A stretch of 24,000 nucleotides of DNA, taken from Metamycoplasma hominis ATCC 23114. GTDB taxonomy: Bacteria > Bacillota_I > Bacilli_A > Mycoplasmatales > Metamycoplasmataceae. The stretch lies in contig NC_013511.1 of assembly GCF_000085865.1 (NCBI RefSeq), positions 270,516 through 294,515 on the forward strand. Direction: 5' to 3'. The position numbers and the translations under genes were made by a program. Below are positions 1 through 6,575 of this stretch, one piece after another. The notes under the pieces were generated by a model. That model did not search any database, was not told the DNA's origin, and saw nothing but the letters and a program-made list of their open reading frames with translations. Positions within the stretch are counted from its first letter, which is position 1, and every line of letters begins with the position of its first letter.

Positions 1-3000
1 TTAATTGTTAGATGAAATAATTTTTACCTTTGTTTTGTCTATACCAGTATTTTCTCATTTTATATTACTTGCATCACCTTTATAAATTACTTCTTTAAGG
101 TTTGCGCAATCAGAAAACGCTCTTTCGCCAATTTCTTTTACCGAACCAGGAATAGTAATAGATTCAATGTTTGTATTTGAAAATGCCTCAGCGCCAATTT
201 TTTCAAGACCTTCATTTAAAATTACTTCTTTAAGGTTTTCGCACCAAGAAAACGCTCTTTCGCCAATTTCTTTTACTGTACCAGGAATAGTAATAGATTC
301 AATTTTTGTATGATTAAATGCCCCAGTGCTAATTTTTTCAAGACCTTCATTTAAAATTACTTCTTTAAGGTTTTCGCACCAAGAAAACGCTCTTTCGCCA
401 ATTTCTTTTACTGTACCAGGAATAGTAATAGATTTAATGTTTGGATTTGAAAATGCCTCAGCGCCAATTTTTTCAAGACCTTCATTTAAAATTACTTCTT
501 CAAGGTTTTTGCAACCAGAAAACGCTCTTCCGCCAATTTCTTTTACTGAACCAGGAATAGTAACTTTTGTGGTTTTTTTATCCAAATATGCTAATATCTT
601 TTTATTATTTTTATCAATAAAAAAGTTATCTTTAATTTCAAAATTTTTATTATTTGAATTAATTAAAATATTTGAAATTATTGAATAATTAAATGCCCAA
701 TCGTCTATTTCTTTTACCGAACCAGGAATAGTAATAGATTCAATGTTTGTATTTGAAAATGCATATCAGCCAATTCCTTCAAGGCCTTCATTTAAAATTG
801 CTTCTTTAAGGTTTAGGCAATCAGAAAACGCATATAAGCCAATTTCTTTTACTGAACTAGGAATAGTAATAGATTCAATGTTTGTATTTGAAAATGCATA
901 TCAGCCAATTCCTTCAAGGCCTTCATTTAAAATTGCTTCTTTAAGGTTTAGGCAATCATAAAACGCTCTTTCGCCAATTTCTTTTACTGAACCAGGAATA
1001 GTAATAGATTCAATTTTTGTTTTATAAAATGCCTCAGCACCAATTTTTTCAAGACCTTCATTTAAAATTACTTTCTTAAGGTTTTCGCAACCATAAAACG
1101 CACTTTCACCAATTTTTTTTACTGTACCAGGAATAGTAATAGATTCAATTTTTGTATCTGAAAAAGCACTTTCACCAATTTTTTCAAGACCTTCATTTAA
1201 AATTACTTCTTTAAGGTTTGTGCAACCATTAAACGCATAATCGCCAATTTCTTTTACTGAACCAGGAATAGTAATAGATTCAATTTTTGTATTTCAAAAT
1301 GCACAAGCGCCAATTTTTTCAAGACCTTCATTTAAAATTGCTTCTTTAAGGTTTAGGCAATCATAAAACGCTCTTTCGCCAATTTCTTTTACCGAACCAG
1401 GAATAGTAATAGATTCAATGTTTTTACCAGCAAATGCCTCAGCGCCAATTTTTTCAAGACCTTCATTTAAAATTACTTCTTTAAGGCTTTCGCACCAAGA
1501 AAACGCATATTTGTCAATTTCTTTTATTGAACCAGGAATAGTAATAGATTCAATGTTTGTATTTGAAAATGCATATCAGCCAATTCCTTCAAGGCCTTCA
1601 TTTAAAATTACTTCTTTAAGGTTTGTGCAACCATTAAACGCATCTTCGCCAATTTCTTTTACTGAACCGGGAATAGTAATAGATTCAATTTTTGTATTGC
1701 TAAATGCCCAAGCGCCAATTTTTTCAAGACCTTTATTCAAAATTACTTCTTTAAGGTTTTTGCAACCATAAAACGCTCATTCGCCAATTTCTTTTACTGA
1801 ACCGGGAATAGTAACTTTTGTGGCCTTTTCATCCAAATATGCTAATATTTTTTTATTATTTTTATCAATAAAAAAGTTATCTTTAATTTCGAAATTTTTA
1901 TTATTTGAATTAATTGAAATATGTGAAATTCTTGAAAAATCAAATGCCCTGACGCCAATTTCTTTTACTGAACCAGGAATAGTAATAGATTCAATGTTTG
2001 TATCTAAAAATGCCTTAGCGCCAATTTTTTCAAGACCTTCATTTAAAATTACTTCTTTAAGGTTTGTGCAACCAGAAAATGCACTTTCGCCAATTTCTTT
2101 TACTGTATCAGGAATAGTAATAGATTCAATGTTTGTATCTGAAAATGCAAAAGCGCCAATTTTTTCAAGACCTTCATTTAAAATTACTTTCTTAAGGTTT
2201 TTGCAACCAGAAAACGCACCTGCGCCAATTTCTTTTACTGAACCAGGAATAGTAATAGATTCAATTTTTGGATTATTAATTAACCCAGCAAATGCCGCAT
2301 AGCCAATTTTTTCAAGACCTTTATTTAAAATTACTTCTTTAAGGTTTTCGCAACCATAAAACGCTCATTCGCCAATTTCTTTTACTGAACCAGGAATAGT
2401 AATAGATTCAATTTTTGTTTTATAAAATGCCTCAGCACCAATTTTTTCAAGACCTTTATTTAAAATTACTTCTTTAAGGTTTGGGCACCAAGAAAACGCT
2501 CTTTCATCAATTTCTTTTACTGATCCAGGAATAGTAACTTTTGTGGCCTTTTTATCCAAATATGCTAATATCTTTTTATTATTTTTATCAATAAAAAAGT
2601 TATCTTTAATTTCAAAATTTTTATTATTTGAATTAATTGAAATATGTGAAATTATTGAAAAATCAAATGCCCAAGCGCCAATTTTTTCAAGACCTTCATT
2701 TAAAATTACTTCATGAAGGTCTCCGTGGCCTAAAAACGCACCTTCGCCAATTTCTTTTATTGAACTAGGAATAGTAACTTTTGTGGCCATTCAATCCAAA
2801 TATGATAATATTTTTTTATTATTTTTATCAATAAAAAAGTTATCTTTAATTTCAAAATTTTTATTATTTGAATTAATTAAAATAAGTGTAGTCATTCAAA
2901 AATCAAATGCTCAATTGCCAATTTCCTTTACTGAACCAGGAATAGTAATAATTCCAATTTTTGTATATCTAAATGCTTCAACGCCAATTTTTTCAAGACC

Positions 3001-5160
3001 TTCATTTAAAATTGCTTCATTAAGGTTTGTGCAACCATGAAACGCTCTTTCGCCAATTTCTTTTACTGAACTAGGAATAGTAATAGATTCAATGTTTGTT
3101 TTATAAAATGCCTCAGCACCAATTTTTTCAAGACCTTCATTTAAAGTTACTTCTTTAAGGTTTTCGCAACCAGAAAATGCACCTTCACCAATTTCTTTTA
3201 CTGAACTAGGAATAGTAACTTTTGTGGCCTTTTTATCCAAATATGATAATATTTTTTTATTATTTTTGTCAATAAAAAAGTTATCTTCAATTTCAAAATT
3301 TTTATTATTTGAATTAATTGAAATATGTGAAATGTCTGAAAAATGAAATGCACCAGCGCCAATTTTTTCAAGACCTTCATTTAAAATTACTTCTTTAAGG
3401 TTTTCGCAACCAGAAAATGCACCTTCACCAATTTCTTTTATTGAACTAGGAATAGTAACTTTTGTGGCCTTTTTATCCAAATATGATAATATTTTTTTAT
3501 TATTTTTGTCAATAAAAAAGTTATCTTCAATTTCAAAATTTTTATTATTTGAATTAATTGAAATATCTGAAATCATTGAAAAATCAAATGCTCAATTGCC
3601 TATTTCTTTTACTGTATCAGGAATAGTAATAGATTTAATGTTTGTATTTGAAAATGCCCGAGCGCCAATTTTTTCAAGACCTTCATTTAAAATTACTTCT
3701 TTAAGGATTTTGCAATCAGAAAACGCACTTTCGCCAATTTCTTTTACTGAACTAGGAATAGTAACTTTTGTGGCCTTTTTATCCAAATATGATAATATTT
3801 TTTTATTATTTTTATCAATAAAAAAGTTATCTTTAATTTCAAAATTTTTATTATTTGAATTAATTGAAATATCTGAAATCATTGAAAAATCAAATGATCA
3901 ATTGCCTATTTCTTTTACTGTATCAGGAATAGTAATAGATTTAATGTTTGTACGATCAAATGCCCGAGCGCCAATTTTTTCAAGACCTTCATTTAAAGTT
4001 ACTTCTTTAAGGTTTTCACATCTAAAAAATGCACCAGCGCCAATTTCTTTTATTGAACCAGGAATAGTAATAGATTCAATTTTTTTATCAGCAAATGCAC
4101 TTTCGCCAATTTTTTCAAGACCTTCATTTAAAGTTACTTTCTTAAGGTTTTTGCAACCAGAAAATGTACTTTTGTCAATTGCTTTTATTGAACCAGGAAT
4201 AGTAATAGATTCAATGTTTGTGCTTGAAAATGCACAAGCGCCAATTTTTTCAAGACCTTCATTTAAAGTTACTTTCTTAAGGTTTTCGCAACCAGAAAAT
4301 GTACTTTTGTCAATTTCTTTTATTGAACCAGGAATAGTAATAGATTCAATGTTTGTGCTTGAAAATGCACCAGCGCCAATTTTTTCAAGACCTTCATTTA
4401 AAATTACTTCTTCAAGGCTATGGCAACCAGAAAATGTACTTTTACCAATTTCTTTTACTGAACCAGGAACAGTAATAGATTTAATGTTTGTATTTAAAAA
4501 TGCCTCAGCGCCAATTTTTTCAAGACCTTCATTTAAAATTACTTCTTCAAGGTTTTCACAACCAGAAAACGTACTTTTACCAATTTCTTTTACTGAACTA
4601 GGAATAGTAATAGATTTAATGTTTGTATATTTAAATGCCTCAGCGCCAATTTTTTCAAGACCTTCATTTAAAATTACTTCTTTAATGTTTCTACAACCAG
4701 AAAACGCACCTTCGCCAATTTCTTTTACTGAACCCGCAATAGTAACCGATTGAATAACACTATTAAAAAAAGCATGATTATCAATTTCTGTAATATTTTT
4801 GCCTTGATATTCCTTAGGAATTGTTACTTTAGAATCATTTCCAATAAATTCTGTAATTTTTCAAGTATTTGATTTAGTTAGTTCGAATTTAAATTTTTTA
4901 TTTAAATTTGATGAATCTTCTTCTTTGGTAGGATTTTCTGGTTTAGGTTTATTTTCATCAGGTTTTGAATCTTCTTCTTTTGTAGGATTTTCTGGTTTAG
5001 AATTTGGTTTATTTTCATCAGGCTTTAAATCTTCTTTGTTTTCTTTTGAATTTTGTTTTACTCCATAATCACAAGAAATAGTTGCTAATGGAAGTATAGT
5101 AGTTAATGCTGAAATACTACTTAATATAAGTCATATCTTAATATTTTTTTTATTTTTCAT
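1..5160 (-). CDS. Giant surface lipoprotein built of BspA-type (LRR_5 / TpLRR-like) leucine-rich repeats; 1719 aa with TGA read as Trp
   Basis: ATG at 5160-5158 and TAA at 3-1. I checked every + strand frame-1 triplet across the gaps between the track's minus-strand fragments (55-585, 2365-2790, 2911-3576, 3592-3882) and from 3883 to 5160. No tta/cta (TAA/TAG) occurs, only tca (TGA). All four fragments are in frame with 5160. The N-terminus is MKNKKNIKIWLILSSISALTTILPLATISC|DYG, which is a signal peptide plus lipobox Cys. A K/P/E/N-rich linker follows, then dozens of repeats of the type TIPGSVKEIGERAFSGCENLKEVILNEGLEKIGAEAFSNTNIESI. Confidence 0.85.
60..4740 (-). repeat. Tandem coding repeat array with a basic 135/138-nt unit (45-46 aa, equal to two LRRs)
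   Basis: The strings ccaggaatagtaatagattcaat and gccaattttttcaagaccttcatttaaaattacttctttaaggtt recur along the whole interval. Examples are 745-823 vs 883-961 (period 138) and 4126-4260 vs 4261-4395 (period 135). Confidence 0.9.
3121..3566 (-). repeat. Near-perfect 240-bp tandem duplication inside the LRR gene
   Basis: Line-by-line comparison shows that 3121-3326 and 3361-3566 differ at only 2 positions over about 206 bp. A similar 240-bp pair lies at 2521-2640 vs 2761-2880, and a 306-bp pair at 3539-3660 vs 3845-3966. Confidence 0.85.
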
Positions 5161-5229
5161 TTTCTTACCTTTTATTACTATTTATAATTTTATTTTTATA
5201 TATATTAAAAAGTAAAACCTCTTAATAAT

Positions 5230-5246
5230 AAAAAAAAAAAAAAAAA
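5230..5246 (-). promoter_or_regulatory. Homopolymer A17 on + (T17 on the coding strand), 70-86 nt upstream of the LRR lipoprotein ATG; candidate slipped-strand expression switch
   Basis: Direct count gives a at 5230, ten a at 5231-5240 and six a at 5241-5246, followed by c at 5247. The tract lies in the 5' untranslated/promoter region of the gene starting at 5160. Confidence 0.45.
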
Positions 5247-5335
5247 CAGATTTTTAATATAATTGGTTGAAAAAATGGCTTATTTTCTATATTTTTTATG
5301 CAATTTATATATTCTTAAGGTCAAAAAAATGCAAT

Positions 5336-5367
5336 AAAAAAAACTCAGATTGAACTGAATTTTTTTA
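5336..5367 (-). terminator. Intrinsic terminator downstream of ftsZ (bidirectional shape)
   Basis: The stem is actcag (5343-5348) paired with ctgaat (5355-5360), 6 bp including one wobble, with a 6-nt loop. An A-run and a T-run flank it. It lies about 65 nt after the ftsZ stop codon. Confidence 0.45.
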
Positions 5368-5429
5368 TTTTTTAAATGGCAATAAAGATAATTAATTGCA
5401 TTTTTTTAAAACAGATTTCTTACATCATC

Positions 5430-6575
5430 TTAGTGTTTTAATATATCTGCAAGTTCATCGTTTGAATCTTCATCATTATCCATTGAAAAAAATGATTGTG
5501 TTTTAAATGTTCCTTCAGATACAAAGAATTCCTTTGTTTCATCGTTAACATAATTTAAATCGTCTTTTTTTATTACATTGATTACTTCATCTTGAATTTG
5601 ATCAATGTCTTTAGGAGCATCTTTTCTTAATCCCGTGGCGATTACCGAGACAAATAGCTCACCTAATTTGTTGCTTTCTTCAGATTCTAGAGTTGTTATA
5701 CCAAAAATAATGTTAATTTCATTACCAACAATTTCCCGCATAGCTCCCAAAGCACTTTGAATTTCATTTAAAGTTACTTTTTGAGAAGCACTGAAATTTA
5801 CTATTGCATCGCTAGCCCCAACAACACTTGATTCTAAAATTGGGCTTGTTATTGCAGATGTGATTGCTTTTACAGCCCTATCTTGGCCATTTGCTTGGCC
5901 AATGCCGATTAATGTTTCACCTTTATTTTTAATAATGGTTGATAAATCTGCAAAATCAAGATTAATAATGCTTGGGGTGGCAATAACATCAACTATTGTT
6001 CTAATAGTTTGCTTTAAGACATTATTTGCGCAAATAAATGCATCTGAAAAAGAAATATTTCCATATTGTTGTAATAGTTTATTGTTTGAAATAACAATAT
6101 ATGAATCAACACATTTTTTAATTTCTTGTAAGCCTTGCTTTGCAATTCTCATTCTCTTTGGACCTTCAAAGTCAAACGGAGTAGTTACAACTGCAACTAC
6201 TAAAGCATTGCATTCCTTGGCTATTTGTGCAATCACGGGCGCTGCACCTGTGCCGGTTCCACCACCCATTCCTGCAGTTATAATTACTAGATCAGCTCCT
6301 TGCAATCTACTTTTGATTTCTTCACGTGAAGATTCAGCAGCAGTTTTGCCAATTTCAGGGTTAGCACCCGCGCCAATTCCACGTTCATCACCTAAATGTA
6401 AAACGCATTCTTGAGGAAATTTTGCTAATACTTGTTTATCGGTATTGGCAGCAATAATTTGAAAACTATCTAAATGGCTATTTATCATAGTTTCAACACT
6501 ATTATTTCCGCCACCACCTACTCCAATAACAATTATTTTTGCCACCGGGTTATAATTATTTAATTCTTTTGCCAT
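5430..6575 (-). CDS. ftsZ: Cell division GTPase FtsZ (381 aa)
   Basis: Complete ORF ending in TAA. It carries the tubulin signature GGGTGTGAAPVIA, the N-terminal IGVGGGGNN motif and NTD. An AGGAG RBS sits at 6584-6580. Confidence 0.95.
   Translation of the reverse strand: MAKELNNYNPVAKIIVIGVGGGGNNSVETMINSHLDSFQIIAANTDKQVLAKFPQECVLHLGDERGIGAGANPEIGKTAAESSREEIKSRLQGADLVIITAGMGGGTGTGAAPVIAQIAKECNALVVAVVTTPFDFEGPKRMRIAKQGLQEIKKCVDSYIVISNNKLLQQYGNISFSDAFICANNVLKQTIRTIVDVIATPSIINLDFADLSTIIKNKGETLIGIGQANGQDRAVKAITSAITSPILESSVVGASDAIVNFSASQKVTLNEIQSALGAMREIVGNEINIIFGITTLESEESNKLGELFVSVIATGLRKDAPKDIDQIQDEVINVIKKDDLNYVNDETKEFFVSEGTFKTQSFFSMDNDEDSNDELADILKH

Follow-up and report, generated by a model that had tools for sequence, protein, structure and literature searches.

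Homopolymeric tracts in promoter regions are established switches of surface lipoprotein genes in mycoplasmas. Metamycoplasma hominis is a human urogenital opportunist with one of the smallest genomes known and very few transcription factors, and the mechanisms behind the variation of its surface are known for few genes, e.g. Vaa, which varies through a poly(A) tract in its coding sequence. The closest described systems include the poly(A) promoter tract of the vlp genes of M. hyorhinis and the poly(T) promoter tract of maa2 of M. arthritidis (Citti & Wise 1995; Washburn 1998, both as summarised in PMC2268961); the same source reports that insertions and deletions in the promoter spacer switch vlp, maa2 and vmm. 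For the promoter T-tract of M. agalactiae vpma, experiments showed no part in variation (PMC2268961). In Helicobacter pylori, the T-tract of sabA, situated next to the -35 element, acts as a multiphasic rheostat (Aberg 2014, PMC4081817). A poly(T) tract before one surface gene of M. hominis itself has been known since 2004, vmp-1 carrying a T16 located 77 bp before its ATG (Boesen 2004, PMC524362).

The locus described here lies in a stretch of 24,000 nucleotides (the window, 270516-294515 of the contig) from the genome of M. hominis PG21, a single contig of 665,445 bp with 27.1% G+C. Read with genetic code 4, positions 1 to 5160 of the window encode on the minus strand a BspA-type leucine-rich repeat (LRR) lipoprotein of 1719 aa, with the lipobox LATISC in its signal peptide and 20 stretches matching PF13306 (LRR_5) in Pfam. 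The gene name MHO_2260 for this open reading frame is taken from PMC4342427 and PMC7648426. According to Calcutt & Foecking, PG21 has only one large lipoprotein gene with repeats, MHO_2260, and its counterpart in LBD-4 is a four-gene array (PMC4342427). The order of genes on the minus strand is mraZ, mraW, an open reading frame of 355 aa, ftsZ (5430-6575, minus strand; Pfam Tubulin and FtsZ_C), an intergenic region of 269 nt and then MHO_2260. A terminator-like hairpin read from the sequence, TTCAG-ttcaat-CTGAG followed by T8, stands after ftsZ (5344-5359, minus strand); a strict terminator scan made no call at 5344-5359. The hairpin would set the promoter region of MHO_2260 apart from the dcw operon. 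Nearer the gene, a putative ribosome-binding site, AAAGGTAAG, was read at 5164-5172 (minus strand), and a search of the leader against Rfam gave no known RNA, only sub-threshold noise. Upstream of the T17 tract, a segment of 110 nt holds three copies of the heptamer ATTGCAT/ATGCAAT (window 5298-5304, 5329-5335 and 5395-5401), which lie around the ftsZ terminator hairpin, two of them falling within a 13-bp inverted repeat; the heptamer could be a protein-binding site.

The tract itself consists of 17 uninterrupted T's in the sense of the gene, read as A17 on the plus strand (5230-5246; the feature is assigned to the minus strand), and is hypervariable in length. It ends 69 nt before the MHO_2260 ATG at 5160 and spans 70-86 nt upstream, exactly as the sequence-only reading of this DNA had given it, and the proposal of the same reading that it belongs to the promoter region of a gene for a surface lipoprotein holds, with the LRR lipoprotein ATG at that distance.

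A census of homopolymers in the whole genome sets this tract in a small group. Runs of A with lengths of 5 to 9 nt number 2912, 1364, 583, 137 and 5, respectively, and runs of T are similar; A or T runs of 10-14 nt are absent from all 665,445 bp, and exactly five runs of 15-18 nt occur. The distribution of homopolymer lengths in PG21 is therefore bimodal, with the long tracts forming a separate class far beyond chance. Read along the gene that follows, each of the five is poly(T); they lie 36-134 nt before its start codon and precede genes for signal-peptide or lipoprotein products, and so make up a non-random class of tracts. Besides the LRR lipoprotein MHO_2260 (1719 aa), these products are a Pro/Glu-rich lipoprotein of 334 aa, an Lmp-like protein of 1366 aa with an uncleaved-type signal peptide, a DUF31 peptidase lipoprotein of 808 aa, and a membrane-anchored AAA ATPase of 602 aa with a lipobox. 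A lipobox is present in four of the five. Since predicted lipoproteins account for 43 of the 537 coding sequences of PG21 (about 8%; PMC2751442), four lipobox proteins among five would arise by chance with a probability of the order of 2 in 10,000. Long repeats are thus over-represented and tied to genes for surface or host-interaction functions, as in contingency loci, and this pattern is genus-wide. A common spacing between tract and -10 element was sought across the five PG21 loci and none was found.

Two further observations concern other tracts in PG21. The T16 of the AAA ATPase gene (PG21 genome 598997-600857; L009:4998-6858) stands only 36 nt before it, and the neighbouring genes encode a D12-class DNA methyltransferase and DUF6339 proteins; this locus could be a phase-variable module of the defence type and not a classical surface antigen. 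Homopolymers of G or C occur at six sites of the PG21 genome (67673-67684, 384870-384877, 385473-385481, 649647-649656, 650261-650268 and 14206-14216). They include a C12 directly after the ATG at 67670, poly(C) or poly(G) runs of 8-10 nt with identical flanks within the hsdS genes of both type I restriction-modification loci, and a C11 in a type III mod pseudogene, the sole G/C tract discussed in the genome paper (PMC2751442).

To locate the same locus in other assemblies of M. hominis, exact matches of the conserved neighbouring proteins were used. Five assemblies sharing the FtsZ allele of PG21 were compared along a 4.9-kb stretch that runs from mraZ into the LRR gene. In four of them the tract reads T14, T14, T15 and T16, against T17 in PG21, with the sequence otherwise identical over the 4.9 kb; the fifth, L005, an independent short-read assembly, has T17 and is identical to PG21 throughout. 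The T8 runs in the same 4.9 kb are invariant among these PG21-like assemblies. Strains further removed from PG21 that share this upstream cassette (type A, as distinct from the type-B cassette described below) carry T16 (A136), T18, T19 (Sprott) and T32 (SS10); a T10 in two assemblies was discounted for visibly compressed homopolymers and broken genes. Across M. hominis assemblies the tract therefore ranges from T14 to T19, with T32 once, and the other four tracts of PG21 range over 14-18, 17-20, 13-19 and 15-17. The comparison between strains that the sequence-only reading had proposed as a check thus came out in its favour, with lengths differing and flanks unchanged, and the length of the MHO_2260 tract changes much faster than the flanking sequence.

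We lean towards an explanation in which slippage at the tract changes transcription of MHO_2260. T17 would be a homopolymer prone to slippage and retained within the promoter region, where replication slippage would add or remove T's; the number of T's would alter promoter geometry and, through it, transcription of MHO_2260, and a clonal population would then mix cells with different amounts of the MHO_2260 protein on their surface. The probability that we give to this explanation is split about evenly between two models of the promoter.

According to the first model, the tract would make up most of the spacer of an ON/OFF switch of the vlp/maa2 type. The candidate -35 is TTAAAA (5252-5257, minus strand), which matches TTGACA at four of six positions, lies 5 nt upstream of the tract and is kept in all type-A strains; the candidate -10 is TATTAT (5225-5230, minus strand), which abuts the tract and uses its last T. 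With its 21-nt spacer, PG21 would be OFF or weak. The sequence-only reading, from which this pairing derives, had quoted the flanks correctly; their order is TTAAAA (5257-5252), ATCTG, T17 and TATTAT (5230-5225), which gives a spacer of 21 nt, and a further hexamer, TAAAAT, is at 5192-5187. A -10 element abutting the tract is common in relatives. The tract lengths observed would correspond to spacers of 18-23 nt and of 36 nt, in no case of 17, and no TTGnnn hexamer abuts the MHO_2260 tract. Furthermore, four of the ten tract-bearing type-A lineages (L033, L042, L108 and L111) carry a 3-nt deletion of ATT, T(n)ATTAAGAGG, which converts TATTAT into TATTAA and removes its critical final T. TATTAT as a -10 partner of TTAAAA is thus destroyed in these lineages. 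Of the tract-length toggle as it had been proposed, the promoter position and the length variation are supported, and the TATTAT -10 is in doubt.

According to the second model, the core promoter would be TTTACT-18-TAAAAT, formed by a candidate -35 TTTACT (5211-5216, minus strand) and, 18 nt after it, a candidate -10 TAAAAT (5187-5192, minus strand), both obtained from a consensus scan in which this predicted promoter was the only minus-strand match. The tract, which ends 13 nt upstream of TTTACT, would occupy about -50 to -66, and a gain or loss of T's would rotate and shift the AT-rich DNA further upstream with respect to the core promoter, which would make the tract a dial similar to that of H. 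pylori sabA. TAAAAT is kept in all type-A strains, and so is the TTTACT/TAAAAT block apart from TTTATT in two strains and a 9-nt duplication in Sprott. We would give roughly equal weight to the two models. In Sprott (L038:8251-8350), the T19 type-A cassette carries the duplicated ATATATAAA between the -35 and -10 candidates and continues past TAAAATTAT into another lipoprotein gene (MKKSKKILLTMGG...), the shared cassette ending just after TAAAAT; this other gene and the gene behind the PG21 tract at genome position 254625 are members of one family.

Tracts of at least 14 T's are present in 16 of the 18 genomes sampled from the same genus. A search for sites with ATGAARAA 25-140 nt past a T14 identified loci in 12 of 33 genus genomes, most of them encoding lipoprotein-type N-termini. 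In one same-genus genome, G012, nine lipoprotein paralogues are preceded by TTGnnn-(G)-T14-16-G-TAAAAT or TAGAAT, so that the tract constitutes the whole spacer between -35 and -10, set to 16-17 nt. The precedent of vlp and maa2 on which the sequence-only reading had drawn (PMC2268961) is in this way matched within the genus, the tract being the exact spacer, and the G012 family looks like a ready-made multi-gene phase-variation system. It comprises at least nine lipoprotein genes (MKKSKKALSLLLASVG...; G012:C1:211600-216620, 398000-399300 and other sites, L083-L091), which share a conserved leader with a GTTACTTG...CAAGTAAC hairpin. Other relatives have a good -10 element 0-13 nt past the tract, e.g. 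T(n)ATAAT in G005, and T(n)GTAAAAT was also seen. In the G005 draft, a long T tract (up to T27) lies about 220-280 nt from the contig end in C1, C3, C5, C6, C7, C11 and C13, which suggests a repeated element or gene family whose tract-bearing promoter breaks the assembly.

Most M. hominis strains drive their LRR genes, including every paralogue of the arrays, from the second upstream cassette, type B. It was seen after ftsZ in L034, L035, L039, L040 and L103-L112 and recurs before each paralogue in arrays of two to three genes; in some strains a GmrSD-containing islet lies between ftsZ and the LRR genes. In type B the T run, which lies as far from the ATG as in type A, is broken by an A (T6-8 A T7) and varies much less, and the core of the cassette, TTTGCT ... 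ATATATAGAATATAAAAATT, is homologous to the TTTACT/TAAAAT block, a conservation that supports this predicted promoter. The use of an interrupted run in these strains argues that a long uninterrupted tract is not needed for expression of the LRR gene family.

This bears on the strongest alternative to a regulatory tract, namely that T17 is hypermutable and has no regulatory effect, being either tolerated or a static T-rich, UP-like element, with TTTACT-18-TAAAAT working regardless of its length. In favour of such a reading, a conserved candidate core promoter is located at least 13 nt downstream of the tract; the homologous core of type B lies next to an interrupted run, the lengths spread widely (14-19 and 32) around no preferred value, and the T-tract of vpma, with no role in variation, provides a precedent (PMC2268961). 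A neutral tract, however, should decay, and the genome shows instead a gap at 10-14 nt and five runs of 15-18 nt before genes for surface proteins. The tracts have also been retained across strains and across the genus, and lipoproteins of the same family stand behind unrelated T-tract cassettes at different loci. On balance we regard the neutral reading as unlikely, while keeping it as a serious competitor of slippage-driven regulation.

The tracts are also places where sequences are joined. In A136 (L036), the 3' end of the MHO_2260 tract directly adjoins the prophage MHoV-1, whose terminal repeat is AAAGTCCC; in L043 and L044, MHoV-1 directly adjoins the locus-4 tract, again at its 3' end. 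The junctions with the MHoV-1 end (AAAGTCCCGAAGGGGC...) were observed at L036:8252-8300 and, in L043 and L044, at 2290-2340. Henrich et al. (2020) placed the A136 prophage insertion in the intergenic region by MHO_2260, with the T-rich direct repeats TTTTTTTT/CTTTTTTT, and reported no systematic pattern of MHoV-1 insertion sites (PMC7648426). At locus 3 (PG21 genome 369072-369089), the allele encoding the Lmp-like protein and an allele with a restriction-modification islet diverge inside the tract, of which the latter keeps T6. These alleles follow ATP-synthase-like genes (L020, L021 and L023 versus L022, at about 4000-4010), and the islet consists of a MutH-type gene and a cytosine methylase gene. 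In addition, vmp-2 and vmp-3 were found to be insertions located at a poly(T) tract (Boesen 2004, PMC524362). Together, the MHoV-1, locus 3 and vmp cases show that poly(T) tracts also mark junctions of genome plasticity, and long T tracts may be preferred targets of MHoV-1.

These junctions speak for a reading in which the tract would be mainly a hotspot of recombination and integration, i.e. the 5' edge of exchangeable surface-gene islets and a target of MHoV-1, with any effect on expression secondary. MHoV-1 inserts at short runs of T5-T8 elsewhere too, however (PMC7648426), and a hotspot would leave unexplained both the strict sense orientation and promoter-proximal position of the five tracts and the spacer geometry in G012. 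As the main function of the tract we therefore consider it quite improbable. A role in recombination is nonetheless compatible with a regulatory role and not opposed to it. Both would be combined if the M. hominis tracts were dual-purpose, serving as a slippage dial on the promoter of a surface-protein gene and as a preferred junction for the exchange of surface-gene or defence-gene islets and of MHoV-1, so that the five together would form a 'variability scaffold' of the surface, a proposal that we put forward as speculative and doubtful.

A tract stable at T17, with all differences between strains due to sequencing or assembly, is very improbable: homopolymers of at least 14 nt are error-prone on all platforms, L042 and L108 clearly compress homopolymers and short-read contigs often stop at tracts, but the PG21-like assemblies lack other differences in the 4.9 kb, T8 runs included, hybrid-polished complete genomes also differ (A136 and SS10), L005 arrived at T17 independently, and all five loci vary with the variation confined to the tracts. 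Any single length value may carry a homopolymer assembly error, and we argue that the polymorphism itself is probably real. Two other roles considered for T17 were rejected, that of a terminator T-tail, with no G+C-rich hairpin before the tract and a distance of about 100 nt past the ftsZ hairpin, and that of an antisense or divergent promoter, with both neighbouring genes on the minus strand. Folding of the intergenic RNA is unremarkable (z = -1.4).

If the five tracts are switches or dials, as slippage-driven regulation would have it, M. hominis would possess a compact set of independently variable surface functions, made up of a BspA-type LRR lipoprotein, a Pro/Glu-rich lipoprotein, an Lmp-like protein, a DUF31 protease and a membrane AAA ATPase. 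Such a set would account for the differences in antigen profile from strain to strain and from culture to culture. Because the concept is established in mycoplasmas, the gain would consist of a catalogue and a test case and not of a new principle. Transformation tools now exist for M. hominis, a transposon of the pMT85 type having been used in strain M132. In the searchable literature we found no description of the MHO_2260 tract, of the set of five PG21 tracts or of their length polymorphism; papers naming MHO_2260, retrieved by full-text search, contain nothing on the tract and no expression data, and the PG21 genome paper mentions neither 'poly' nor 'homopolymer' (Pereyre 2009, PMC2751442).

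Among the described systems, vpma, which encodes a variable lipoprotein, shares with MHO_2260 a homopolymeric T tract immediately before the promoter, and its case warns against taking the position of a tract as proof of a switch. The vmp tract is the nearest in origin, being from the same species, before a large signal-peptide surface protein and at the edge of a strain-variable islet; it belongs to a different gene and locus, and its function, like that of the MHO_2260 tract, is putative. H. pylori sabA offers the likeness for the second promoter model: a T-tract with a length of some 13-18 nt, found upstream of an adhesin gene's -35 and highly variable among isolates, in a bacterium with few transcription factors, and with rotation of upstream AT-rich DNA relative to the core promoter as the proposed mode of action in both cases. 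The tract of sabA directly adjoins the -35 element, whereas in the second model the tract lies 13 nt further upstream of a promoter that is itself predicted. With respect to vlp and maa2, MHO_2260 differs in that no TTGnnn abuts its tract, the putative spacer measures 18-23 nt, and the -10 is lost in several strains. MHO_2260 resembles these systems in that a mycoplasma of the Hominis group has a long A/T homopolymer within the promoter region of a gene for a surface lipoprotein with repeats; and just as the vlp and maa2 tracts change length by slippage, so the MHO_2260 tract is variable in length, here between assemblies.
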